A stretch of DNA of 47,368 nt from the NCBI GenBank assembly GCA_900313795.1, contig OMSS01000001.1:1-47368 (forward strand), given 5' to 3'. The notes beneath the pieces are model-generated. The model had not been told where the DNA came from. It did not search any database and was given only the letters and a program-made list of their open reading frames with translations. This stretch comes from an uncultured bacterium. GTDB lineage: Bacteria > Cyanobacteriota > Vampirovibrionia > Gastranaerophilales > Gastranaerophilaceae. Every line of letters starts with the position of its first letter. The first letter of the stretch is position 1. Both the position numbers and the translations under genes were made by a program. Positions 12,068-25,152 of the stretch are shown piece by piece.

Positions 12068-13087
12068 TTATCGTTTAATTTTTGGCGATTTGAGCCATTT
12101 ATTATGTTCTTTCATATCTTGGTACATATAGCAATGACTGCAAGGTATTTCGGGGTTTTCAGGGGCATTATTTATGACCATGTTTTTTGCGTAAATTATT
12201 TTTGGATTGTTCATTGCGGTTAAAAACCCTTCAGTGAAAGCATTTCCGCCAAAATCGTCCGTAAATAATGAACAGCAGCCCAAAACTTTGCCGTCCCAGT
12301 TGATTTGTGGTTCTTCCCACAAAAATGCACAATAATACCAGTCCAAAAGGCCCTGTTCATACTCTTCGAGCAATTTATGAGGGGGAAGTTCGACACTTGG
12401 CATGCCCGTTTGTTCTATTACTTTTTGAGGATTTTTTACGGGAGAAAAATCGGGATAGGTATTTTGTTCAAAAACGATTTCCATATCGAGATTTTTTGCC
12501 AAAATTTTTGCTTGTTCAATTTCGTGTTCATTATGCCCGAAAACGATGAATTTGTAGTACATCACAGGGTATTTTGAGTTATATTTTTGTTTATAAAAAT
12601 TGATTTTTTTGATATTTTCAATGACTTTGTTGAAGTCCCCATTTTTGCGGTAAATTTTATATGTTTCTTGGCTTGCACCGTCGATTGAGACATAAACTCT
12701 CTTTACGCCACATTTTACGAGTATTTCAGCCATTTTATCAGAAAGGTAGTTTAAGTTTACACCATTGTCCATTGACAGTGCAATTCCTTTTGTGGTGGCG
12801 TATTCGATTATTTTGTCTAATTCGGGATTTAGAAAAACTTCGCCGTGATTTGAGAGTTCAATCGATTCAAAATCATTTTCATCAATAAATTTTTTGAAGT
12901 CATCAAACTTCAAATTGCCCAATCTGCAACCATTTTCGACCCCTTCTTTGTCCATTCGCATGTAGCATCTTTCGCAATCGAGTTGGCATTTTGTGCTTGC
13001 ATCAATGCGAACTTTTTTCGGCAATTCCGATTTGTCGTGATAAATTTCTCCAAGATATTTTTCTTCCAAAATGATTTTATTGCTCAT
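12068..13087 (-). CDS. radical SAM protein with C-terminal SPASM/twitch-like domain (paralog B)
   Basis: 'CQLDCERCYM' cluster motif. C-terminal 'WDGKVLGCCSLFTDDFGGNAF...PCSHCYMYQ'. Roughly 55-60% identical by eye to the upstream gene. Confidence 0.75.
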   Translation of the reverse strand: MSNKIILEEKYLGEIYHDKSELPKKVRIDASTKCQLDCERCYMRMDKEGVENGCRLGNLKFDDFKKFIDENDFESIELSNHGEVFLNPELDKIIEYATTKGIALSMDNGVNLNYLSDKMAEILVKCGVKRVYVSIDGASQETYKIYRKNGDFNKVIENIKKINFYKQKYNSKYPVMYYKFIVFGHNEHEIEQAKILAKNLDMEIVFEQNTYPDFSPVKNPQKVIEQTGMPSVELPPHKLLEEYEQGLLDWYYCAFLWEEPQINWDGKVLGCCSLFTDDFGGNAFTEGFLTAMNNPKIIYAKNMVINNAPENPEIPCSHCYMYQDMKEHNKWLKSPKIKR

Positions 13088-14084
13088 TTTTTGCCCTCGG
13101 GGATTTTAGCCAAACGTTGTGTTTTTGCATATCTTGATATATTTCGCAGTCAAAACAGGGGATTTTTTTATTTGGTGCGACTTTATTTGTTACCATATTT
13201 TTTGCATAGAGAAAATCAGGGTGGTTTAATGTTTCAAAAAGCCCATCTTTAAAGACATTTCCGCCAAAATTTCTTTTGTAATTTGCACAGCAGCCCAAAA
13301 GTTGCCCGTCCCAGTTAATTTGTGGTTGCCAAAGATCGTTGCAATAAAACCAATCGACTTCGCCATTTTCAAATTGTTTCAGTAACTCAACAGGGGATGC
13401 ATTTGTTGTCAAAGAGTTCAATCCTGTCTGTTCAAGCACTTTTTGAGGATTTTTGACTGGAGAAAAATTTTCGTCCCAATTAGTTGCAAATTTTATTGCC
13501 ACACCCAATTTTTTTGCCTCAATTTTCGCTTGTTCAATTTGGTGTTCATTATGCCCGAAAACGATGAATTTCCAAGTGATATGCGGGCAACCGTTGCTAT
13601 ATTTTTGCCTATAAAAAATAATTTTTTTGATATTCTCGATGACTTTGCCGTAATCTCCACCAACACGGTATTTTTCGTATGTTTCTTGACTTGTGCCGTC
13701 AATCGAGACTGTCATTGAAATGACGTGATATTTTGCAAGTGCCTCAGCCTGTTTGTCGGTGATGTAATTTAGGTTAACACCGTTATCTGCAGTGACTTTC
13801 ACCCTTTTTTTATCTGCGTATTCTAAAATTTTTACCAAATCAGGGTTCAAAAAAATCTCGCCACTATTTGAAATTTCGATATTCTCAAGTTCATTTTCAT
13901 CAAGCAGTTTTTTGAAATCTTCAAACTTCAAATACCCGAAACCGCAACCATTTTTAGCATTTTCTTCATCTGTTCTCATATAGCAAACGGGGCATTTTAA
14001 CTGACAAATACTGCAAACTTCCACCCTTAAACGTTTTGGAAGTTCTGATTTGTCTTTATAAATTTCTGCATCTTTTTCAAACAT
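13077..14084 (-). CDS. radical SAM protein with C-terminal SPASM/twitch-like domain (paralog A)
   Basis: 'CQLKCPVCYM'. C-terminal 'WDGQLLGCCANYKRNFGGNVF...PCFDCEIYQ'. Overlaps paralog B by 11 nt. Confidence 0.75.
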   Translation of the reverse strand: MFEKDAEIYKDKSELPKRLRVEVCSICQLKCPVCYMRTDEENAKNGCGFGYLKFEDFKKLLDENELENIEISNSGEIFLNPDLVKILEYADKKRVKVTADNGVNLNYITDKQAEALAKYHVISMTVSIDGTSQETYEKYRVGGDYGKVIENIKKIIFYRQKYSNGCPHITWKFIVFGHNEHQIEQAKIEAKKLGVAIKFATNWDENFSPVKNPQKVLEQTGLNSLTTNASPVELLKQFENGEVDWFYCNDLWQPQINWDGQLLGCCANYKRNFGGNVFKDGLFETLNHPDFLYAKNMVTNKVAPNKKIPCFDCEIYQDMQKHNVWLKSPRAKNEQ

Positions 14085-14139
14085 TTATAAAACCCACAAT
14101 ATCAAACGCTCTGCCTTTTTTGCCTTTTGGACAAGTTTG

Positions 14140-15585
14140 TTATTCTGCTCTTTGTTTTTTGAACAAATCCCAAACAAACAAAATGTAGTTTTTGAATTTT
14201 TTCGGGTCTCTGTATGTTTCTGCAATCGTTCTGAAGAAATATCTCGGGCTTGCGTAGTACAAGAAAAGAGTTTTCTTTCTGAAATCTTTGAGTTTTTTAT
14301 GAGTTAAAAATTTCGTGCCTAATGCAGGAATTTTAATCGTTTCATTTTCAAAAAGCGATTCTCTCAAAATATTTTCATCACGGAAATTCTTTTCGACAAC
14401 CGAATCTGGGTACGCAACGGGGAATGTTAACGAAAGCAAATCCGGACATATTTTCAAAATCAATTTTTTCGTTTCCGCAAGGTGAGATTCCGTTTCCCAC
14501 GGCAAACCTACTGAGAACAAGCCGAAAATTTTGAGTTTATGTTTTCTTGCAATGTCAACAGTGTTGATACTTTCATCGACTGAAAATCTTCTGTCCAAAC
14601 GAACAAGGGTGTCGTCTGAGCCGCTATCGAAACGTACGACAATCATTGAACAATTAGCATTTTTCATCTCCATTGCCATATATTCTGTGAAAGATGCAAC
14701 GTTTACGTTCGCAATCCAGTCAACATGCCCGTTCATCGGTGATTCGATGATGTAATCACAAAATTCTTCAACCCATTTTTCATTGTGGTTAAAAGTGTCT
14801 GACGGGAAGTAAAAATTGGTGATACCGTATTTTTGGTAACATTCATACATTTCGTCAAAAACTTTTTTAGCAGGACGAACATTCATTGTTCCATCTGCCA
14901 AAACAGGTTCTTTGCAATGTAAACAAGTGTATGGACAGCCTTTTGCCGTGATAATTGTTGCAATAGGTTTTTTGTTGTCGGGGCGAACATATTTTTCGTT
15001 CTGCATCAAATCTCTTGCTGGGAACGGCAAATCGTTTATATTTCCATGCGGTGCGTGGAAGTTTGTTTTGTGCATCATACCGTTTTTGCAAATCGTGATA
15101 AACGGCACTTGATAAAGCATTTCGGGGGTTTCATAATGTGCTTGAACCAACAAAGGCATTACAAACGCAGCATCAGAACCAATTAAATAATCCACTCCGC
15201 CCATCGGCAAACTGCATAAAAGTTCTTCAGAAGCATCAAAAAACATATCGCTTTTCAAGATAATTACGATTTGAGGATTTGAGGATTTAATCATTCTGAC
15301 CAATTTCAAATCTTCAAAAATGTTTGCGATATCCGTTTTAAAAAGCAACATATCCGGACAATTTTTCAATACGTCGTCGAGCAAGTCGAGTGCGGTTTTG
15401 CGTTCGATTTTGTAATCTTTTAAAACGACTTCGTGACCTGCATTTTGCAACATTGCCGCAATATAGCCCAAATCATTGCATGCTCTCATTGAGTGAGGAA
15501 CAATGTCTGAAGTTCTGTATTTGTATCTGTTCTTAATATTTACCGATAAGTCCCCTGGGGGGCTGCAAAGCATTATTTTTTTCAT
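14140..15585 (-). CDS. B12-binding-domain (class B) radical SAM protein
   Basis: N-terminal Rossmann-like B12-binding region 'LGYIAAMLQNAGHEVVLKDY', then the radical SAM core 'KGCPYTCLHCKEP'. The 481-aa length is typical of the class. Confidence 0.8.
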   Translation of the reverse strand: MKKIMLCSPPGDLSVNIKNRYKYRTSDIVPHSMRACNDLGYIAAMLQNAGHEVVLKDYKIERKTALDLLDDVLKNCPDMLLFKTDIANIFEDLKLVRMIKSSNPQIVIILKSDMFFDASEELLCSLPMGGVDYLIGSDAAFVMPLLVQAHYETPEMLYQVPFITICKNGMMHKTNFHAPHGNINDLPFPARDLMQNEKYVRPDNKKPIATIITAKGCPYTCLHCKEPVLADGTMNVRPAKKVFDEMYECYQKYGITNFYFPSDTFNHNEKWVEEFCDYIIESPMNGHVDWIANVNVASFTEYMAMEMKNANCSMIVVRFDSGSDDTLVRLDRRFSVDESINTVDIARKHKLKIFGLFSVGLPWETESHLAETKKLILKICPDLLSLTFPVAYPDSVVEKNFRDENILRESLFENETIKIPALGTKFLTHKKLKDFRKKTLFLYYASPRYFFRTIAETYRDPKKFKNYILFVWDLFKKQRAE

Positions 15586-15623
15586 AATATTCGGTCACCG
15601 AATTTTCCAATACGTTCACTTTT

Positions 15624-15652
15624 GTGACAATTTTAATGAAAAAAAATATAAA
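15624..15652 (+). promoter_or_regulatory. candidate promoter for mutS2
   Basis: GTGACA (15624-15629), a 17-nt spacer, then TATAAA (15647-15652), within the 107-bp divergent intergenic region. Confidence 0.3.
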
Positions 15653-15692
15653 AAACAAGATATACTAAGTTATTTGTCATATAATTAATTAC

Positions 15693-18059
15693 ATGAAACC
15701 TGTAATTGAAGTAACGGAATTTGACAAAGTAAGAGAATATATATCCGAAAACGCAATCACTGAGCCTGGAAGGCTTAGAACTTTGAGTGCGGAAATTTTT
15801 GACGATGCGGAAAAAATTCGAGAACAATTAACCTGCACAACTGAGGCAAGAAGGTTGTGCGATATGAATTTACGCTTGCCGTTGGAAAATTTTTCCGATT
15901 TGACAAGTTCTCTTAAAGATGCAAAAGCCAGAATTAAACTTTCGCCGCAAGAAATTTGGGATATCGCAAATCTTCTCAGAAATTCAAGACTTGTGAAAAA
16001 TTTTCTCGACAAAAATGCCGAAGATGCTCCAAAATTGGCTGAAATTAGTGCTAATCTTTTTGTCCTGAAAGAACTTGAGGACAAAATTTTTGATACTTTA
16101 GGTAGCGATATGAAGGTTAAAGAAAGTGCTTCATCAGAATTAAAACGTCTCTATGGTGCACTCTCAGACACTCATGCAAGTATTAAATCCACAATTACAA
16201 GATTGCTCTCGGATTCGAATTTTACAAATGATTTGCGAGACACAATCTACACTCAGCGTGATGGCAGAACCGTTTTCGGGGTTAAGGCTGAGGCAAAAAA
16301 CAAAATTTTGGGCATCGTACACGACGTTTCCGCCTCTGGGCAAACGTTTTTCATCGAACCGAAAGATTTGACCGAACTTCACAACCGTGAACGTGAAATC
16401 GAAATTCATATCCAAATTGAAACTGACCGAATTTTGAAAGTTTTTTGTGAAGAAATTGGTAGACACTTCGACGAACTCATTGCGACACAAGATGTTTTGG
16501 CAGAAATAGATTTCCATTTTGCAAAAGGAAAATATTCTCAAAAAACTGAAAGTTCTCCTGCAATTATTCTTGATGAACCGAAAATTGACTTGAGAGCAAT
16601 GAAAAACCCAGTGTTGATGAGGGTTTGTGATAACGTCATCGAGAACGATTTCAATGCAGGAAAAGACAATCTTTGCACAATTATTACAGGTTCTAATACA
16701 GGTGGAAAAACAGTCGTATTAAAGACTGTGGGGCTTTGCGTATTGATGAGCAAAGCAGGATTTCACATTCCCTGTTTGAGTGCAAAAATCTATCCGTTCA
16801 AAAAAGTTTTTGCCGATATCGGTGACCAACAAAACATTATTCAAAGTTTGTCGACGTTTTCTTCACACATCAAAAACCTTGTCGAAATGAGCAATCAAGC
16901 CGATAGAGATACTTTGATTTTGATAGATGAAATCTGCTCAGGAACTGATCCTGCCGAAGGTTCGGCACTCGCAAGAGCATTGTTGCAATATTTTGTTGAA
17001 AAACAGGCGTTTTGCGTTGTCACGACACACTTTGGCGACTTGAAAAATCTTGCACTCGAAGGTAGCGGATTTGAAAATGCAAGCGTTAGATTTGACACTG
17101 AAACCTTGAAGCCTACATATCGCTTTACTCAAGGAGTTTCTGGCAGCAGCAATGCAATTACGATTGCGGAAAATTTGGGCTTAAATTCTGAAATCATTGG
17201 CAATTCAAGAGAAATTTTCACTGAAACATCGGGCAAAAATATTGAAAAATTTGCCAAAATCGAAGAAATGTGGGAAGAAGCCGCCAAAAAAGCAGACGAG
17301 GCAAAAAAAGAGGCAGAAGTCGCAAAAGCATTGAGGTTGCAACTTGAAAAGCAGGCTGATGATTTGAAAAAAGAAAAACGGAAAATCATTGCGGAATACA
17401 AGAAGAAAACACAGACAGCGTTTGATTCTGCACGAGATGAAATTAAAGATGTTTTGAAAAATCTTCGTGAAAACGAAAATCGTGAAAACACAATGAAAAC
17501 AATACGGAAGAATACTTTAATCCGCAAAAAACTCCACGATAAACTTGATGAAGAATACGAGTCTTTGAGAGAAGAATATCGTGATATTGACATAAATTCA
17601 ATCGTCAAGGGCGATAAGGTCATAATTCGTGACTTAAATCAAGAGGCTGAGTTTGTTGGTTTTACGGATAAATGCAAAAAGGCTATAATCCTTATGGGTG
17701 CTGTAAAAACGACACTTCCTGTCAAGAAACTTGCTATGTATGACAAAGATGTTGTCAAACCAAAAGTGAAGCCGCTCGTTCAACGGAAACAGGCTGTCGA
17801 GTTCGTCAAACACGATGTTTCGTACACTTTGGACTTGCGTGGATATAGATACGAAGAGGCTATGGACGAGGTTGAAGCGTATCTTGATAAGGCTTGTGCA
17901 GCGGGACTTTCGTACGCAATTATCATTCACGGGCATGGAACTGGCGTTTTGAAAAAGGCGATTCGGGAATATCTTGCGGACAGTCCTTATGTCGCAAAAT
18001 TCCGCCCAGGAGAAGATGTTGAGGGCGGAGACGGAGTCAGTGTGGTGGATTTGAACTGA
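15693..18059 (+). CDS. mutS2: endonuclease MutS2 (MutS domain V ATPase plus C-terminal Smr)
   Basis: Walker A 'ITGSNTGGKTVVLKT', 'STFSSH', Walker B 'LILIDEICSGTDP', a K/E-rich coiled coil, and the Smr domain 'LDLRGYRYEEAMDEVEAYLD...IIHGHGTGVLK'. Confidence 0.92.
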   Translation: MKPVIEVTEFDKVREYISENAITEPGRLRTLSAEIFDDAEKIREQLTCTTEARRLCDMNLRLPLENFSDLTSSLKDAKARIKLSPQEIWDIANLLRNSRLVKNFLDKNAEDAPKLAEISANLFVLKELEDKIFDTLGSDMKVKESASSELKRLYGALSDTHASIKSTITRLLSDSNFTNDLRDTIYTQRDGRTVFGVKAEAKNKILGIVHDVSASGQTFFIEPKDLTELHNREREIEIHIQIETDRILKVFCEEIGRHFDELIATQDVLAEIDFHFAKGKYSQKTESSPAIILDEPKIDLRAMKNPVLMRVCDNVIENDFNAGKDNLCTIITGSNTGGKTVVLKTVGLCVLMSKAGFHIPCLSAKIYPFKKVFADIGDQQNIIQSLSTFSSHIKNLVEMSNQADRDTLILIDEICSGTDPAEGSALARALLQYFVEKQAFCVVTTHFGDLKNLALEGSGFENASVRFDTETLKPTYRFTQGVSGSSNAITIAENLGLNSEIIGNSREIFTETSGKNIEKFAKIEEMWEEAAKKADEAKKEAEVAKALRLQLEKQADDLKKEKRKIIAEYKKKTQTAFDSARDEIKDVLKNLRENENRENTMKTIRKNTLIRKKLHDKLDEEYESLREEYRDIDINSIVKGDKVIIRDLNQEAEFVGFTDKCKKAIILMGAVKTTLPVKKLAMYDKDVVKPKVKPLVQRKQAVEFVKHDVSYTLDLRGYRYEEAMDEVEAYLDKACAAGLSYAIIIHGHGTGVLKKAIREYLADSPYVAKFRPGEDVEGGDGVSVVDLN

Positions 18060-18991
18060 TGAAAGAAAACTTAAATTTTAAAACAAAAAATACAAACATC
18101 AGTTTGACTGCATATAGAGCGATAAAAATTTTGAAACTTTTAATGGAAAAACCGTCTACAAGTGCCGAAATCATTGAAGTTTTGAAACAAGATGAGTTGA
18201 CAATGCGGTCGGTTTCCGATGATACTTTGCGAGTGACGATGAATTCTCTGAAAGCGGTCGGTTGTAAGATTGCACGCCCATGTCCGAAAAATAATTATCA
18301 TTATATTTTGACAGAACACCCATTTCGGGCAAAATTTTTAGCACCCGAGATTAATGTTTTGATGCAGATAAGGCAATATTTTTTGGATAGTTGCCAATGG
18401 CGTACCGTTATTGGGTTAAACAATTTTTATGACAAAATAATTGCTTCTCATTGCGATGTTGAAAATGTTGATTTGCTCAACAAAAATCGCCCGTTTGCGA
18501 AGGTTCGAGCGAATATTTTGAAAACTTTTTATGAAAAAGATTTGGGCAAAAAAGAAATTTTGATGACTTATGCAACCTCGTCAAAAAAGATTGAAAAGAT
18601 TAATATTTCAAGCGAACGAGTTTTTTGCGAAGCGGGCAAATTGTACGTACTCGGTTGGTATTACAAGCGAAACACCTGTTCTTATTTCAATGCGGAAAAA
18701 ATATTGGAAATTCATTCTATTGAACCCAAAAAATTAACAGAAACCCTTGAAAATAAAGTGTTGTATAAGGTTACGGGTGATGAGGCACTGACTTTCAGAT
18801 GTAATTCTGATGAAAGAATTCTTGAACAAACAGAAAAAGAAATAACGGTTGAATGTACTGCAATGAGCGAGTTTAAGATTGTTCAGAGATTGCTTTCGTT
18901 TGGTTGTGATTTTGAACTTATTTCGCCGATGTATTTAAAAAATCATTTGCTTGAAAAATTGTCCAAAATCAAAGCGAGGTACGAACAATGA
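18059..18991 (+). CDS. HTH-WYL-WCX transcriptional regulator (PafB/PafC-like architecture)
   Basis: N-terminal wHTH 'AYRAIKILKLLMEKPSTSAEIIEVL', WYL-type core 'GKLYVLGWYYKRNTCSYFNAEKILEI', and a C-terminal extension 'IVQRLLSFGCDFELISPMYLKNHL'. The ATG shares 1 nt with the mutS2 TGA. Confidence 0.7.
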   Translation: MKENLNFKTKNTNISLTAYRAIKILKLLMEKPSTSAEIIEVLKQDELTMRSVSDDTLRVTMNSLKAVGCKIARPCPKNNYHYILTEHPFRAKFLAPEINVLMQIRQYFLDSCQWRTVIGLNNFYDKIIASHCDVENVDLLNKNRPFAKVRANILKTFYEKDLGKKEILMTYATSSKKIEKINISSERVFCEAGKLYVLGWYYKRNTCSYFNAEKILEIHSIEPKKLTETLENKVLYKVTGDEALTFRCNSDERILEQTEKEITVECTAMSEFKIVQRLLSFGCDFELISPMYLKNHLLEKLSKIKARYEQ

Positions 18992-19884
18992 CCTATGTCG
19001 CAAAACATCACGATTCTTGCGTTAGAGTTTTGGAATTCTTGAAACTTTTGACGAAAGAAGATATCGATATAAAAGAATTAGAATATGGTCGGAAATTCAA
19101 GGATATCGAAGCCCCTGAAACGTTTTTGAAGTATATTTCCACGCTTGAAACATCAGAAATTGATGTGAGAAAAATTGGCAAAAAATATTCTCTTTGTAAA
19201 TTTCCTGAAGAACTTGAACTCAAAGACGAAGAAATTAACCTCATAAGTATTATTTGTAAGGCTTTTGATGCTTGTTGTCTTGAAAAAAACAGAGTTTTCT
19301 TGGAAAGTTTTTTGTCAAAACTCCAAAAATCTTTGACGCAAAATTCAAGAGAAAAATTGTTTTCAAAAATAGAATATTTAAAAAATTCTGCTTCAAACAA
19401 CAATATTGCAGAAGTTGCAAACAATTTCCAACAATACGTTGATTTGGCTCAAAAATTGAAAATTACTTATGATGGCAAAACGGCAATCGTTATACCGAAA
19501 AAGGTCGAAATTTATGAAGATAGAGTGATTTTAGATGTTTATAATCCTAAAACTGCTGAAAATTTCAAACTTTTGACCCAAAATATCGAAAATATTGAAA
19601 TTCTTCCCGTTCGTGCAATTCAGTCGAGTAATATGACAAATTCGGTCGTGTTTACTGTTTATGGCAGATTGGTCGTGAATTACCGTTTGCGTGATTGCGA
19701 AAGAGTTCAGACTTTTAACGATGATGAAAAAGTTATCATAAATACGGGCGAGGATAAAAAATCTTTGCTCAAAAGGCTTATGAAATATGGGGAAAACTGT
19801 AAAATTATGTCCCCGAAATTTATGCAGCAAGAAATGCTTGACGAACTTCAAAAGGTTGAGGATAAATTAAGAGGAGTTAAATGA
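18988..19884 (+). CDS. second, diverged HTH-WYL-like protein
   Basis: Same overall layout: 'CVRVLEFLKLLTKEDIDIKEL' (HTH-like), 'DRVILDVYNPKTAENFKLLTQNIENIEIL' (WYL-like beta core without the WYL triad), and 'LLKRLMKYGENCKIMSPKFMQQEM' (WCX-like). ATGA overlap with the upstream gene. Confidence 0.5.
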   Translation: MTYVAKHHDSCVRVLEFLKLLTKEDIDIKELEYGRKFKDIEAPETFLKYISTLETSEIDVRKIGKKYSLCKFPEELELKDEEINLISIICKAFDACCLEKNRVFLESFLSKLQKSLTQNSREKLFSKIEYLKNSASNNNIAEVANNFQQYVDLAQKLKITYDGKTAIVIPKKVEIYEDRVILDVYNPKTAENFKLLTQNIENIEILPVRAIQSSNMTNSVVFTVYGRLVVNYRLRDCERVQTFNDDEKVIINTGEDKKSLLKRLMKYGENCKIMSPKFMQQEMLDELQKVEDKLRGVK

Positions 19885-21287
19885 TGAAAAAAATCGGTTT
19901 CCTTCCGATAGATAATCGCCCTGTTTGTTATGATTTGCCTAAAATGATTGCAAATATTGATTCAGAGGTCAAAATGTATCTTCCGCCAAAAAATCTTTTG
20001 GGTTCGCTGACAAGAAATGCCGACAGAAATGCACTTTTCGAATGGCTAGAAGATTTGAACGATGTCGATTACCTCGTAATATCAGTAGATACGCTCATTT
20101 ACGGTGGTTTGATACCGTCAAGAAGAAGTTCTGATACGAAAGATGAAATCGAAAATCGACTTTTGAAGTTGAGAAATATTTTGCTCAAAAAAGCAAACTG
20201 CAAAACACTCATTTTTTCAAGCATAATGCGTATTTCGAATAATAATTGCAATGAAGAAGAAAAAGAATATTGGGCAGATTTTGGGAAGAAAATTTTTGAA
20301 TATTCTTTTGAACTTCATCGTTCGGAAATCGAGGGAAACCGCTCCGCTAAAGAAAAAGCGACCCAAGTTGCCAAAGAAATTCCGTCTGAAATTTTGATTG
20401 ACTGGTTGTCTACTAGAGAAAGAAATTTTTCTGTCAATAAAGAATACGTCAAAATGTTTGATGACGGCATTTTTGACACTTTGATTTTTTCAAAAGATGA
20501 TTGTGCAAAGTATGGCTTTAATGTCAAAGAGGCAAAATATTTCGAATTTTTGGCTCAAACACGAAAGGGTATGTTTGTTAAAACAGGGGCTGATGAAATC
20601 CCTCTAACCTTGCTATCACGCTGCATTTCAGACGGAAAAAAGATTAAAATGGCCCCAATTTATACAAATCCTGATGAGGTCGATAAAATTTCAAAATACG
20701 AGGACGTTTCGGTGAAGAAGTCTGTTGAATCGCAAATTTTGACGGCAGGCGGAAGCGTTTCTTCGCCCGATGAAGCCGACTTGATTTTGTATGTGAATAA
20801 CTTTAAGGGCGAACAGGGTGAACTCGTCATGAACGTTGATACAGAACCTTTTGACGGGGAGTTTGCTCATTTTGACAAACCATATTTTGTTGTTGATATT
20901 TTGAATGCAAATGGTGCGGATAATAAATTTGTTGAAAAAATGTTTGAAAACGGTATAAATGGGTACTTTTACGGATATTCTGCTTGGAATACGACGGGAA
21001 ATTCCTTGGGATCTGGAATTGCTGCTGCGGTGACGAAATTTTTGGCAAAAAATCCTGATGAGAATGCTTTTAAAAAATTGCAAACGGTTAGATTTCTTGA
21101 TGATTGGGCGTATCAGGCAAATTTGAGAAAAGAATTTAAACGGGAAAACTTGATGGACTTGAACGAGATTAAGAATCGATTTTCTAGATATGAAAAAGAA
21201 GTCGCAAAGGCTTTGAACGTGGATACTTCTAAAATTTCGTATTTTTTCCCTTGGGATAGATTTTTCGAAATTGAAGTGAAAATATAA
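19881..21287 (+). CDS. DUF4127 family protein (function unknown)
   Basis: I recognise these blocks as the DUF4127 (PF13552) family: 'GFLPIDNRPVCY', 'ISVDTLIYGGLIPSRR', 'GADEIPLTLLSR', 'YGYSAWNTTGNSLGSGIA', 'FFPWDRFFE'. ATGA overlap with the upstream WYL-like gene. Confidence 0.65.
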   Translation: MMKKIGFLPIDNRPVCYDLPKMIANIDSEVKMYLPPKNLLGSLTRNADRNALFEWLEDLNDVDYLVISVDTLIYGGLIPSRRSSDTKDEIENRLLKLRNILLKKANCKTLIFSSIMRISNNNCNEEEKEYWADFGKKIFEYSFELHRSEIEGNRSAKEKATQVAKEIPSEILIDWLSTRERNFSVNKEYVKMFDDGIFDTLIFSKDDCAKYGFNVKEAKYFEFLAQTRKGMFVKTGADEIPLTLLSRCISDGKKIKMAPIYTNPDEVDKISKYEDVSVKKSVESQILTAGGSVSSPDEADLILYVNNFKGEQGELVMNVDTEPFDGEFAHFDKPYFVVDILNANGADNKFVEKMFENGINGYFYGYSAWNTTGNSLGSGIAAAVTKFLAKNPDENAFKKLQTVRFLDDWAYQANLRKEFKRENLMDLNEIKNRFSRYEKEVAKALNVDTSKISYFFPWDRFFEIEVKI

Positions 21288-21293
21288 TAAATT

Positions 21294-21332
21294 GGATTCT
21301 TCGGTCTTTTACAAGACCTCAGAATGACGAAG
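21294..21332. repeat. hairpin repeat, copy A (GGATTCTTCG...CTCAGAATGAC type)
   Basis: ggATTCTtcggtcttttacaagacctcAGAATgacgaag. Outer stem is ATTCT/AGAAT and the inner hairpin is ggtctt/aagacc. Related copies lie at 25153-25265 and 35969-36006. Confidence 0.5.
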
Positions 21333-21363
21333 TTTCTGATTTTTTACGGTTGCAGATGATATT

Positions 21364-21453
21364 ATTTGCGACAACGAGAGCAAATTGCCAGTTCGATGTC
21401 TCAAAACAAAAAAACTTCCCGAAGGAAGTTTAAAAATGGACGAGAAGAGACTC
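21364..21453. repeat. 90-bp direct repeat, copy 1 (tRNA-Leu 3' fragment, terminator and downstream hairpin)
   Basis: Identical to 21520-21609 apart from one mismatch (g/a at 'aattGcc' versus 'aattAcc'). Period is 156 bp. It contains the last 17 nt of tRNA-Leu (21437-21453) without the rest of the tRNA. Confidence 0.85.
21405..21432 (-). terminator. intrinsic terminator (duplicated copy)
   Basis: On the minus strand: aacttcc-TTCG-ggaagtt followed by a T-run. This is a UUCG tetraloop hairpin. Confidence 0.6.
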
Positions 21454-21519
21454 CCCTGAATCGTAGGCGAACTAACGAGAGCCGTACGAGTCAGGATACC
21501 CGTAGGGTAGAACTCCGTA

Positions 21520-21609
21520 ATTTGCGACAACGAGAGCAAATTACCAGTTCGATGTCTCAAAACAAAAAAACTTCCCGAAGGAAGTTTAAAAATGGACGAG
21601 AAGAGACTC
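21520..21609. repeat. 90-bp direct repeat, copy 2 (overlaps the 3' end of the intact tRNA-Leu)
   Basis: See copy 1. Here the 17-nt segment 21593-21609 is part of a complete tRNA. Confidence 0.85.
21561..21588 (-). terminator. intrinsic terminator of the tRNA-Thr/tRNA-Leu unit
   Basis: 7-bp stem with a UUCG loop and a T-run, immediately 3' of tRNA-Leu on the minus strand. Confidence 0.7.
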
Positions 21610-21672
21610 GAACTCTTACACCGAAGGCGCCAGTTCCTAAGACTGGTGCGTCTACCATTCCGCCACTCGTCC
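21593..21672 (-). tRNA. tRNA-Leu (anticodon UAG)
   Basis: Reverse complement GGACGAGTGGCGGAATGGTAGACGCACCAGTCTTAGGAACTGGCGCCTTCGGTGTAAGAGTTCGAGTCTCTTCTCGTCCA folds as a class II cloverleaf. Acceptor GGACGAG/CTCGTCC, anticodon stem CCAGT/ACTGG with loop CTTAGGA, long variable arm, T arm AAGAG-TTCGAGT-CTCTT. Confidence 0.85.
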
Positions 21673-21683
21673 ATAAAAAGAAA

Positions 21684-21756
<73 letters not shown>

Positions 21757-21802: not shown

Positions 21803-24800
21803 TTAATCGAGTGAGAAAATTTCTTGCAAATCCGCATAACTCAGGCTCTTTCCGATATTTCTGTCGACAGAAATTACCGAGTCAACGAGGTTTCTCTTTT
21901 GTTGTTTAAGTTTTTGAATTTTCTCTTCAACAGTGCCTTTTGTGATGATTCTATAAACGAAAACTTTTTTCGTTTGTCCGATACGGTAAGCACGGTCAGT
22001 TGCTTGATCTTCGACGGCAGGATTCCACCACGGGTCATAGTGAATTACATAATCCGCACCGGTCAAGTTCAAACCTGTTCCGCCAGCTTTCAAACTGATT
22101 AAGAATATCGGAATTGTCGGGTCGGAGTTAAATCTTTCGACGACTTCGCCACGGTTTTTCGTTTTACCTGTAAGATATTCGTGTTTAATTCCTTCTTTTT
22201 CGAGCCAAGCCTTAATGATATCGAGCATATCGACAAATTGACTGAACAATAAAACTCTGTGTTTTTCTTCGATAATTTGTTCGAGCATCGATTTGAGTTG
22301 TTCAAATTTACCCGATTGAATATTTCCTTTTTTGCCCTCTTTGTCGTAAAGTTTCGGGTGACAGCAAATTTGACGTAAACGCAACAATGCCGAGAAGATT
22401 GAGAGTCTGCTTTTTTCCAAACCGTTTTGTTCGATAGATTTGAAAAGTTCTTCTTTTGTGCTGTCCAAAACTTCGAGGTAAAAATCTTTTTGTTCGGGCG
22501 TAAGTTCGCAGTATGCGATGTTTTCCACTTTGTCCGGCAAATCCTTCGCAACGTCACGTTTCATACGTCTCAAAATGAACGGATAAATTTGTGATTTCAA
22601 ACGTTTTTCGACAATCTTATCGTCACGTTCCGTAATCGGCGTTACATAACGGTAATTGAACTCATTTTCTTCAAACAAGAACCCTGGCATGAGAAAGTCA
22701 AATACTGACCAAAGTTCTTCAAGTCTGTTTTCAATCGGAGTACCGGAAAGTGCCAATTTATGTGACGATTGCAACTTCTTGACGCTTTGTGCAGTCAAAC
22801 TGTCAGCATTTTTGATGTTTTGTGATTCATCAAGAATGATATATCTGAAATTGTGCTTAATAAGTTCGTCAATATCCCGTCTGACAAGTGCATAACTCGT
22901 TATAACAACGTCATATTTATCAATTTCTTTGAAAAATTCTTTTCTTTCAACACCAGCAAGTTTCAGGCACTTCATCTTAGGTGCAAACTTTTGGATTTCA
23001 TTTTCCCAGTTGAAAACGACCGAAGTCGGGCAAACTACGAGGTTTGGTGCTTGTTTATCCTTTTCTTTAGCCTTTTGAATCAATGCCAATGCCTGCAAAG
23101 TTTTACCAAGACCCATATCGTCTGCCAATATGCCGTTTAAGCCATATTGATACAAGAACCATAACCAACTGAAACCTTTCGTCTGATATTCACGGAATTC
23201 AGCGTTAATGCCCTTAGGAAGTGCAACCCCGTCCATTTCCGAGAAAGTCGAAATTTGCTTCCAAAACTTGGAAAACTTACGGCTCATTTTAAGAGTCATT
23301 TTAAGGTTCTGCATTTCGGACACAATGCCAGCACGGTAAGTCTTTACGACGTATTTGTTGTCATCGTTTCGATAAACGTCAATCGTATTAAACGATTTCA
23401 TCAACGAGAAAATTTCCTGTACGGGAAGTTCAACAAAACCTTGACCTTTGACCTTGAAATACTTGTTATTGTCCAAAACCATTTCGTAAATATCGTTAAA
23501 CGAAATAATCTCATCTCCAATTTTTCCGTACAATTCAATAATGAAACTATCTTTTGACTCTTCGCAAAAATCAAGTGATGCACAAAGTTCAAACGGTTTT
23601 TCGGCAAGTTTGAAGAAACTCATGTTGTCTTTTTCTTCGAAAATCCAGTCAGCACCTGCTTTTGGCTTGTAATAATTGTAAAAATCGATAGCGTTTTCAC
23701 GTTCCATTCCGAGGTTGTTCGTTTGCATCGGGGCAAATTTGCAACTCAAAAGCATCTGATATGCTTGTTCTTCGTGAAATTTGTTACGTTTGACGTAGTA
23801 AAGCAAGTCCTCTTTAGGCTTTTTAACCGTGACATAAGGCGTTTTGTCTTGTTTGCTATAAGGAACTCTTGTTCCGTTATAATCAAATTCCAAAGTCGCC
23901 TTGAGCGAGCCGTCATAGTCCAATCCGAGCGAAACAACGTTGAGCGGGTGAGATTCTTCAAGTGCAAGTTTTTCAATCGCTTCGGTCGTTTCGACATCTG
24001 TAATCTGTTTTAATTTTGGCAATTCTTCATAAATAAATTTTGCACCTTCAGCGTCTTTGATGTCTGTGAATGATGCTTTGGTTAAGTTTTGCGGAAGTGC
24101 CGAAACTGCAATATTTGTCGGGAAAATGAGGTTTTTATAACGACCCCATTGAAGTTGTCTTGAGAAATACCTGACTTCTTCAAACGGCAAAATATCATCT
24201 CTGTCAGGGCGTTTCCAATACAAGGAAGCAAGCACGTTTCCGACCATTGAAAAGTTTACGCCGACTCCTAAAGTCCAGACATCGTGGGTAAATCTAAGTT
24301 TTGCTTTTGTTTTTCCGTCAATAACTTCTTCTGCCTTTGAGAGCATTTTGAAAAATGGGTCAAACTTCAATATCGGTACGTCATACCAACCTGCTCGTTT
24401 ATCCAATCTTGATTGAGTCAAAAGCATTTTGAAAATTTCAAGATTCACTTTTTGCAAATAATTTAATTCTAAATCTTCGCCGTTTCTTTGTTTTTCGATG
24501 ATTTTTTTGAAAAGACCTTCTAAATCACGAACGACCTTTCCTGTTTCACGTTCCATAACCAAAATCGAGAAGAAATTTTGACGACGTTTGGGATTGAAGT
24601 GGAAAACGTAAGCCCCTTGTGGATTTTCGACCGCATCGGCGATTTCGTCTGAGTAATCAATTTGCATCTTGTATTTTTTTTCGGCATATTCATCGTAAAT
24701 GTGATTGTCGATTGCCGTTAATCCAAGTGCAACAACGTGTTTACACCATTCTTCTTTCAACGGACAAGTACAACTCGGTATAATTTGTCCTTTTTGAAAT

Positions 24801-24976
24801 TTCAATGTAACATCATAATGATCTTTGTAACTGCCCTTAACTATTGCAGACAGTATGTTTCTCGTTAATTTAACGTCTTGCACGAGATTTTTCTGATAAA
24901 CTTCATATCCTCTACGCCAACTTCCCGGCTTTGCATTATCTTTGAGGAATTTATGGTTTAAATACACATTACTCAT
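21803..24976 (-). CDS. SNF2-family helicase with N-terminal SWIM zinc finger
   Basis: SWIM 'CTCPLKEEWCKHVVA'. Helicase motifs 'LADDMGLGKTLQALA' (I), 'ILDESQNIKN' (II), 'LSGTPIEN' (III), and 'SLKAGGTGLNLTGADYVIHYDPWWNPAVEDQATDRAYRIGQ' (V-VI). I prefer the ATG at 24976 ('MSNVYLNHKF') over the TTG at 25003. Confidence 0.85.
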   Translation of the reverse strand: MSNVYLNHKFLKDNAKPGSWRRGYEVYQKNLVQDVKLTRNILSAIVKGSYKDHYDVTLKFQKGQIIPSCTCPLKEEWCKHVVALGLTAIDNHIYDEYAEKKYKMQIDYSDEIADAVENPQGAYVFHFNPKRRQNFFSILVMERETGKVVRDLEGLFKKIIEKQRNGEDLELNYLQKVNLEIFKMLLTQSRLDKRAGWYDVPILKFDPFFKMLSKAEEVIDGKTKAKLRFTHDVWTLGVGVNFSMVGNVLASLYWKRPDRDDILPFEEVRYFSRQLQWGRYKNLIFPTNIAVSALPQNLTKASFTDIKDAEGAKFIYEELPKLKQITDVETTEAIEKLALEESHPLNVVSLGLDYDGSLKATLEFDYNGTRVPYSKQDKTPYVTVKKPKEDLLYYVKRNKFHEEQAYQMLLSCKFAPMQTNNLGMERENAIDFYNYYKPKAGADWIFEEKDNMSFFKLAEKPFELCASLDFCEESKDSFIIELYGKIGDEIISFNDIYEMVLDNNKYFKVKGQGFVELPVQEIFSLMKSFNTIDVYRNDDNKYVVKTYRAGIVSEMQNLKMTLKMSRKFSKFWKQISTFSEMDGVALPKGINAEFREYQTKGFSWLWFLYQYGLNGILADDMGLGKTLQALALIQKAKEKDKQAPNLVVCPTSVVFNWENEIQKFAPKMKCLKLAGVERKEFFKEIDKYDVVITSYALVRRDIDELIKHNFRYIILDESQNIKNADSLTAQSVKKLQSSHKLALSGTPIENRLEELWSVFDFLMPGFLFEENEFNYRYVTPITERDDKIVEKRLKSQIYPFILRRMKRDVAKDLPDKVENIAYCELTPEQKDFYLEVLDSTKEELFKSIEQNGLEKSRLSIFSALLRLRQICCHPKLYDKEGKKGNIQSGKFEQLKSMLEQIIEEKHRVLLFSQFVDMLDIIKAWLEKEGIKHEYLTGKTKNRGEVVERFNSDPTIPIFLISLKAGGTGLNLTGADYVIHYDPWWNPAVEDQATDRAYRIGQTKKVFVYRIITKGTVEEKIQKLKQQKRNLVDSVISVDRNIGKSLSYADLQEIFSLD

Positions 24977-25152
24977 TCGGTTATTTTCTTTGTTCCTATC
25001 CAAATCCCGATAAACTGAATTTACAGTCCACGGACAGGTTCACTTCCCTTATAGTTTGATTATACACAGTGATTTTTATTAGGCAAGAAAAATCTTTGAA
25101 AATGCCGTGATTGAAGTATCGCCCATAATTTTTGATAAATTGGCAAATGACC

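Follow-up and report, generated by a model that had tools for sequence, protein, structure and literature searches.

Four consecutive genes joined by three overlapping start and stop codons raise the question whether they form one functional system or several units that happen to be packed together. This question was addressed for the genes mutS2, WYLA, WYLB and DUF4127 (Pfam family PF13552), which occupy positions 15,693 to 21,287 of contig OMSS01000001.1 (assembly GCA_900313795.1) from an uncultured bacterium of the Gastranaerophilaceae. The whole stretch of 47,368 nucleotides that was analyzed is referred to as the window. A preliminary description had read the four genes as a translationally coupled, damage- or infection-sensing circuit with DUF4127 as its enzymatic output. 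The genes, their identities and the three junctions were confirmed (Table 1), and the statement that no described system combines these parts stands; a literature search found no paper on DUF4127. The comparison with related genomes revealed three layers of linkage: the WYL pair is the core, DUF4127 is attached to it in part of the Gastranaerophilales and mutS2 in one clade thereof.

Distribution of the gene order in Gastranaerophilales

Relatives were searched in a scan with one genome per species, which found 546, and the best 80 loci were analyzed with flanks of up to 10 kb on each side. All 80 belong to Gastranaerophilales (some records are mislabelled) and represent species-level genomes carrying DUF4127. 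The close DUF4127 homologues come from metagenome-assembled genomes (MAGs) of Candidatus Gastranaerophilales/Melainabacteria from guts and rumens.

The order mutS2-WYLA-WYLB-DUF4127 could be identified in 11 of the 80 loci (L006-L016), with a B12-binding radical SAM gene on the minus strand ahead of it, and in a neighbour-joining tree of DUF4127 these loci and the window form one clade. The trio WYLA-WYLB-DUF4127 without mutS2 was found in 25 loci that are spread over several branches of the tree, usually with a dCMP deaminase gene divergently oriented upstream and thrS downstream. For the other 44 loci, no WYL gene is adjacent to DUF4127, which is located mostly after metK-ilvB-ilvN or between genes for a UbiE-type methyltransferase and an MntP-like protein. 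mutS2 is absent from the flanks of all 69 loci that lack the four-gene order. The wide spread of the trio over the tree, which is unrooted, suggests that it is an older state than the four-gene order.

The trio is retained down to about 50% identity of DUF4127 and about 30% identity of WYLA while the flanking genes change. Within the order, DUF4127 occurs in at least four different contexts, and the genes around it are housekeeping genes (dCMP deaminase, thrS, ilvBN, metK, HPF, HSP20). One locus inside the trio clade (L078, 2737-4691) represents a clean loss of the WYL pair: in place of both WYL genes, just 47 nt separate DUF4127 from the dCMP deaminase gene, and DUF4127 itself is intact. The enzyme can thus be kept without the pair, which is what one would expect if the pair is a regulator.

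The reading of all four genes as one functional system does not agree with this distribution, in which mutS2 is linked in a single clade and the WYL pair and DUF4127 each occur apart. Adjacency outside this genome does exist for the WYL genes and DUF4127 (36 of the 80 loci), and it does not extend to mutS2 beyond that clade.

Gene layout and overlapping junctions

Table 1. Features of the mutS2-WYLA-WYLB-DUF4127 locus and its borders (positions in the window).
Feature	Position	Strand	Length	Remark
mutS2	15693..18059	+	788 aa	housekeeping-type MutS2 endonuclease/ATPase
WYLA	18059..18991	+	310 aa	wHTH-WYL-WCX transcription-factor-like protein (from model), first of the paralogous pair
WYLB	18988..19884	+	298 aa	diverged full-length paralogue of WYLA, likely heterodimer partner
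DUF4127 (PF13552)	19881..21287	+	468 aa	cytoplasmic, enzyme-like
Divergent intergenic region	15586..15692	+		presumed operon promoter, between B12-binding radical SAM gene and mutS2
Hairpin with U-run	21289..21346	+		possible operon terminator, directly 3′ of the DUF4127 stop codon
B12-binding radical SAM gene	14140..15585	-		Pfam Radical_SAM and B12-binding; divergent from mutS2

The stop codon of mutS2 shares one nucleotide with the start codon of WYLA (TGATG; TGA at 18057-18059, ATG at 18059-18061), and the following two junctions are 4-nt overlaps of the sequence ATGA, at 18988-18991 between WYLA and WYLB and at 19881-19884 between WYLB and DUF4127. Purine runs resembling Shine-Dalgarno (SD) sites precede the three internal starts (GGTGGA at 18044-18049, GAGG at 18976-18979 and AGAGGAG at 19870-19876). 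Of the 23 pairs of same-strand neighbours in the window, 9 overlap; among the 20 pairs outside the module the number is 6. The G + C content of the genome is 36.7%. Due to this high frequency, overlaps alone are weak evidence of function, and three successive start/stop overlaps in a compact genome are insufficient to define a functional system.

It is the conservation of tight junctions, not overlap as such, that exceeds chance. The junctions WYLA/WYLB and WYLB/DUF4127 are overlaps or gaps of at most 9 nt in all 33 complete related loci, with or without mutS2. Between mutS2 and WYLA, the intact loci of the mutS2 clade all have a distance of -1, -4 or +2; L007, whose mutS2 open reading frame (ORF) is split, is the one exception.

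WYLB and DUF4127 are joined in frame in one MAG of the mutS2 clade (L016, 2496-4805), giving one ORF of 769 aa (P0047) that still has the internal ATG and an SD-like site. This ORF may be a real fusion or the result of a lost stop codon.

WYLA and WYLB as paralogous WYL proteins

The assignment of the two middle proteins to the WYL type, made in the preliminary description, was verified with profile and structure evidence. The PADLOC WYL models match WYLA at an E-value of 6e-9 and WYLB at 4e-7. In the Pfam scan, WYLA scores below the cut-offs for WCX (20.1 bits, cut-off 23.9) and WYL (PF13280, 13.2 bits, cut-off 21.8), and WYLB has no match. Among the orthologues, 14 of 17 WYLA proteins match both Pfam WYL and WCX, with WYL at E ≤ 0.1, and 5 of 13 WYLB proteins match WYL at the same threshold. 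The alignment of the two family profiles with hhalign covers 293 columns at 16% identity (probability 99.8%, E 4e-30), by which the two proteins are judged to be old full-length paralogues.

The AlphaFold 2 (AF2) model of WYLA (predicted local distance difference test, pLDDT, 87.7) begins with a winged helix and ends with an alpha/beta domain, and a helical linker and a beta-barrel lie between them, in agreement with a three-domain fold in which the WYL domain is the Sm-like barrel and WCX is C-terminal. A Foldseek search of the PDB returned mycobacterial PafBC as the best match (9fnd chains Y and X, E 4e-10; 6sj9), followed by DriD, CapW and BrxR, all with a probability of 1.00 and full-length alignment. 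On the basis of this model, WYLA is classified as a transcription-factor-like protein with winged helix-turn-helix (wHTH), WYL and WCX domains, and the same architecture is assigned to WYLB by homology; the conserved N-terminal wHTH is kept in both. Adjacent paralogous WYL genes are present in all loci of the mutS2 clade, in all trio loci and in six of seven distant loci described below. By analogy, WYLA and WYLB most likely form a heterodimeric, ligand-gated transcription factor in the style of PafBC. The gene order, the paralogy, the fold class of WYLA and the phylogenetic spread of each linkage are observations; that the pair forms a heterodimer, binds DNA and a ligand and regulates DUF4127, and what chemistry the enzyme has, are inferences.

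The WYL pair apart from DUF4127

An exhaustive profile search at E ≤ 1e-30 placed the WYLA family in 246 clusters at 50% identity, which makes it a family of some size. Distant relatives at 25-34% identity could be found by profile search as well, and seven of their contexts were read; a metagenome scan for such relatives contributed one locus. In six of the seven, WYLA is followed by an overlapping partner gene of about 290-310 codons, and in L091 WYLA stands alone. The partner is the orthologue of WYLB in L090, L092 and L093 (hhalign probability 99.6-100%); for L097, L099 and L100, the overlapping partner of similar size was assigned by size and position. DUF4127 is present in none of the seven contexts. 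The WYL pair is an autonomous unit.

The next gene downstream of the distant pair is dnaE in L092, coaX in L093 and an overlapping NERD/UPF0102 nuclease gene in L099, and no co-directional gene follows the pair in L090, L097 and L100. Furthermore, recG is located divergently upstream of the pair in L093 (3597-9544).

Genes of DNA metabolism recur at these distant pairs (L092, 2516-7943; L099, 3706-5909; L093, 3597-9544), in a small sample. Two genes for proteins of about 312 aa upstream of the pair in L099 were tested as a second WYL pair and rejected.

Structure, conserved residues and genomic contexts of DUF4127

DUF4127 matches PF13552 over profile positions 1-488 of 489 with 394.7 bits (cut-off 27; E 7.1e-118). 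Its AF2 model (pLDDT 87.9, predicted TM-score 0.90) shows two alpha/beta regions and a long helical insertion. Foldseek found no PDB entry with a TM-score above 0.26 on either normalization; the best E-value belonged to xylose isomerase (TM-score 0.21/0.22), a marginal match that was given no weight. Searches of the PDB sequences with two DUF4127 profiles gave no match at E ≤ 1 for one profile and at E ≤ 10 for the other. The family appears to be without a solved structural relative.

Residues D11, R13, R81, R179, D207, GADE236-239, W369, T371, N374 and D408 are invariant even when homologues at 22-29% identity are included, so that a common chemistry of the distant homologues is probable. These homologues are found among genes of sugar utilization: NanE-HAD-DUF4127-phosphotransferase system (PTS) EIIC with an RpiR regulator in Carnobacterium and on E. 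faecalis plasmids; ROK, esterase, DUF4127, ROK, ManA, PTS, NanE and RpiR in Priestia; NagZ, GH20, a sugar ABC transporter, an oxidoreductase and DUF4127 in Deinococcus; and a sugar ABC transporter, DUF4127, an AAC(3)-like acetyltransferase and PfkB in Subdoligranulum. Two distant copies have N-termini that resemble signal peptides.

In the Bacillus phage PBC6, the protein PBC6_092 (L098, 4001-6079) contains a full-length DUF4127 (E 8e-98) fused to SLH repeats; among the phage proteins the Pfam scan covered this one. A DUF4127 match is also present in ten other phage records of the B. cereus group, where the proteins are mostly annotated as 'S-layer domain-containing protein'. SLH domains bind a pyruvylated secondary cell-wall polysaccharide that contains N-acetylmannosamine (ManNAc), which fits the NanE and ManA neighbours of DUF4127. 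The phage fusion points to a cell-wall glycan as the target of the family, and from the gene contexts DUF4127 probably acts on a ManNAc-type or cell-wall-derived glycan or amino-sugar derivative.

As a side observation, L003 and L101, which belong to one sub-branch, carry genes for a PfkB kinase and a CsaB-like polysaccharide pyruvyl transferase on the upstream side of the trio, at a distance of three to four genes. The CsaB-like gene is of possible interest given the link of the phage DUF4127 proteins to SLH domains and pyruvylated glycans.

MutS2 and the putative regulatory elements

MutS2 matches the equivalog model TIGR01069 with 741.5 bits (cut-off 400). The Pfam scan identified MutS_V (7.6e-34, residues 330-511) and Smr (2.1e-26, residues 713-787) and no MutS_I mismatch-binding domain. 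MutS2 proteins act in recombination suppression and, in Bacillus subtilis, in the rescue of collided ribosomes. All loci of the mutS2 clade whose sequence reaches far enough carry a B12-binding radical SAM gene upstream of mutS2.

In the presumed promoter region in front of mutS2, a TATAAT sequence was found at 15680-15685, just 7 nt upstream of the ATG, so that the leader would be very short or absent. It is conserved in close relatives, the same element TTTGTCATATAAT being located upstream of mutS2 in L006, L008, L010 and L012.

The trio loci (L017-L070) share a different feature, an element (TTCATAATAAGTAACAATnATTTGTAAAGTATTTATA) that spans about 40 nt, is strongly conserved and has a fixed distance of 46 nt to the start of WYLA downstream of it. 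With a position weight matrix (PWM) of this element, true sites score 20-45 bits, compared with at most 18 bits in 530 other intergenic regions. The element is a good candidate for a promoter plus operator and gives indirect evidence for DNA binding and regulation by the pair. Scanning the upstream regions and the 3′ end of mutS2 in the window and its clade with the PWM yielded no copy (scores of -6 to 8), so there is no sign that the promoter/operator of the trio moved together with the trio. Most simply, the trio would be read from the mutS2 promoter in the lineage of the window.

The hairpin behind DUF4127 has a folding energy of -14.3 kcal/mol and a z-score of -1.47, which is not significant alone. 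A consensus scan for promoters and terminators in the window showed no excess over the shuffled expectation and missed this hairpin.

Proposed explanation and alternatives

The explanation put forward here is a PafBC-like paired WYL regulator that is co-transcribed with a glycan-related enzyme, DUF4127, and whose link to mutS2 is a lineage-specific operon fusion; we regard the chances for and against it as evenly balanced. In this explanation, the conserved unit would be the three-gene operon WYLA-WYLB-DUF4127 of gut Gastranaerophilales (Melainabacteria/Vampirovibrionia). WYLA and WYLB would pair as a ligand-gated regulator, and DUF4127, a putative cytoplasmic enzyme co-transcribed and translationally coupled with the pair, would probably be under its control. 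A rearrangement in one sub-lineage, including the window, would have set the trio directly behind the housekeeping gene mutS2, whose promoter would since then transcribe all four genes.

Several points weigh against this explanation. The single transcript is a prediction, and the heterodimer and its binding to DNA are deduced from the likeness to PafBC. Autoregulation is unsupported in the lineage of the window, where TTCATAATAAGTAACAATnATTTGTAAAGTATTTATA is absent. In Gastranaerophilales, DUF4127 has no sugar-utilization neighbours, and its role there may therefore differ from that in Firmicutes. The designation as a glycan enzyme is drawn from gene context, and the fold has no solved neighbour. 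Furthermore, a transcription factor that acts as a simple pathway regulator is not typically coupled in translation, at a fixed ratio, to an enzyme, and the in-frame ORF of L016 hints at a closer physical tie than that of a regulator and its target.

One alternative is a WYL pair that, like PafBC and DriD, senses single-stranded DNA (ssDNA) and switches on a repair regulon, with a functional link to mutS2 and DUF4127 as a damage-induced effector. We consider this unlikely, though worth keeping in mind. PafBC and DriD, the closest structural matches of WYLA, are damage regulators activated by ssDNA (PMC11804915; PMC12041258), and genes of DNA metabolism do recur beside the pair, namely mutS2, dnaE (L092), recG (L093), the NERD/UPF0102 nuclease gene (L099) and, in the trio clade, the dCMP deaminase gene. 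However, the genes beside the pair differ between loci, many of them have no relation to DNA (coaX, thrS, Gate-domain proteins) or no neighbour is present, the linkage to mutS2 is confined to one clade, the promoters of the trio and of mutS2 have no common operator, DUF4127 occurs elsewhere in contexts of sugar catabolism and the cell wall, and WYL domains bind other ligands as well, such as cyclic di-GMP (PMC11880434). A DNA-damage-sensing role of the WYL pair itself is possible; the four-part damage- or infection-sensing circuit was not borne out, given a lineage-specific mutS2, the lack of a defence context and the sugar genes around distant DUF4127 copies. The preliminary description had itself named two findings that would speak against it, an adjacency restricted to this genome and a DUF4127 that models as a known catabolic enzyme among sugar or peptide utilization genes. 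Largely, this is the outcome: the mutS2 adjacency is clade-specific and distant DUF4127 copies do have sugar-utilization neighbours, but the Foldseek search gave no match to a known enzyme.

An anti-phage defence module under a BrxR/CapW-like WYL regulator, the infection-sensing alternative of the preliminary description, is highly improbable and has been largely refuted by the genomic context. Control of defence systems is a frequent role of WYL regulators, the structural matches of WYLA include BrxR and CapW, and an SNF2 helicase gene matching the PADLOC models of DpdE and ZorD lies about 500 nt downstream on the opposite strand. That gene, however, scores far below every NCBIfam cut-off and was found within the flanks of just three related loci (L008, L010 and L046), directly downstream in L010 only. 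For the module itself, PADLOC gives WYL models for the two middle genes, none for DUF4127 and a marginal LeoBC match (E 2e-4) for MutS2. The locus is vertically inherited among housekeeping neighbours, DUF4127 is widespread in Gastranaerophilales, and the G + C content is uniform, without a compositional island in the window.

The conserved tightness of the junctions could also reflect an enzyme complex in which WYLA and WYLB are regulatory subunits that bind and gate DUF4127. WYL1 modulates Cas13d in this manner. The persistence of overlaps or very short gaps down to about 30% identity of WYLA, a deep divergence, and the L016 ORF would fit such a complex, but this ORF occurs in one MAG with its internal start codon and SD-like site kept, six distant loci have the pair without DUF4127, DUF4127 lacks the pair in the 44 relatives and in all other phyla examined, and both WYL proteins conserve the N-terminal wHTH; we rate the complex as rather improbable. 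A variant that we likewise give a small chance combines a PafBC-like heterodimeric stress or DNA-damage sensor WYLA/WYLB of the non-photosynthetic cyanobacterial lineage with a dedicated enzyme of structurally unsolved fold, DUF4127, which would produce, break down or respond to the ligand of the WYL pair. If this were true, the coupling and the WYLB-DUF4127 fusion would reflect a physical module to which mutS2, dnaE and nuclease genes were repeatedly recruited. Finally, the genes may have no functional link and have been packed by genome compaction, with their order kept by inertia. In agreement with inertia, overlaps make up about 30% of the same-strand junctions in the window, the junction with mutS2 has a single origin and DUF4127 occurs in its several contexts within the order; the retention of the trio at low identity, with changing genes on both sides, and the trio-specific upstream element TTCATAATAAGTAACAATnATTTGTAAAGTATTTATA argue against it and leave it a slim prospect.

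If the proposed PafBC-like regulator with its glycan-related enzyme is correct, the PafBC-style paired WYL regulator extends beyond Actinobacteria to Melainabacteria, an uncultured gut lineage in which experimental genetics is nearly absent. The NanE/PTS clusters and the SLH fusions of phages also provide a first working hypothesis for DUF4127, a family of wide distribution that counts thousands of sequences, namely that of an enzyme of ManNAc-type or cell-wall glycan metabolism.

Other features in the window

Upstream of the module, three consecutive radical SAM genes are located on the minus strand (12068-15585), one of them B12-binding and one with a SPASM domain, with two junctions that overlap or nearly do so. 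They may form a cluster for the maturation of a peptide or cofactor; in related genomes, the B12-binding gene is the only one of the three to accompany mutS2.

Downstream, the SNF2 helicase gene (21803-25003, minus strand) encodes a protein of 1066 aa with an N-terminal SWIM zinc finger and strong PADLOC matches to DpdE and ZorD. Between the module and this gene, tRNA-Leu(tag) (21592-21673) and tRNA-Thr(cgt) (21684-21756) are encoded on the minus strand, and the Rfam scan of the window detected these two tRNAs and nothing else. An ORF of 121 aa at 21309-21674 (minus strand) is spurious. A sequence of 90 nt is present as a direct repeat (21364-21453 and 21520-21609), with 99% identity and a spacing of 156 nt; what is duplicated are the final 18 nt of tRNA-Leu together with its terminator hairpin. 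The repeat may stem from a small tandem duplication or be the scar of an integration event.

Comparison with known systems

MutS2 corresponds to other members of TIGR01069: the copy in the window is full-length, with the MutS_V ATPase, the MSSS/KOW-like region and the Smr nuclease. It is distinguished solely by its downstream neighbours, and this in one clade.

The DUF4127 proteins from the amino-sugar clusters of Firmicutes and Deinococcus and from the phage SLH fusions agree with the Gastranaerophilales proteins in having the full-length domain and in the acidic, arginine and tryptophan residues that are invariant. They differ from them by an identity of 22-29%, by NanE, PTS, RpiR, ROK or ABC transporter neighbours, and by an SLH fusion or a signal peptide, whereas the Gastranaerophilales proteins are cytoplasmic, encoded among housekeeping genes and coupled to the WYL pair.

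DriD of Caulobacter, CapW of CBASS and BrxR of BREX have the three-domain architecture and the fold in common with WYLA and, as is presumed for WYLA, are encoded beside, or control, the genes they regulate. In contrast to the conserved paralogue pair described here, which has housekeeping neighbours and no defence genes, they are encoded by single genes, form homodimers and are located in defence or damage contexts.

The closest parallel is PafBC. PafB and PafC are the sole well-studied heterodimer of the wHTH-WYL-WCX family and are encoded by adjacent overlapping paralogues (PMC6789036; PMC11804915). The sequence identity is about 14%, and a profile search of the PDB gives a marginal match to PafC (E 0.22). 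PafBC belongs to Actinobacteria and WYLA/WYLB to Melainabacteria, and neither pafA nor Pup-proteasome genes occur among the neighbours of WYLA and WYLB. A heterodimer, activation by ssDNA and sigma adaptation would be predicted for WYLA/WYLB by this likeness. In both systems, two adjacent, overlapping paralogous genes encode proteins of about 300-330 aa, each with the order wHTH-WYL-WCX, and are placed in an operon with the gene of an unrelated housekeeping enzyme, which is pafA in the case of PafBC and mutS2 and/or DUF4127 in the locus described here.

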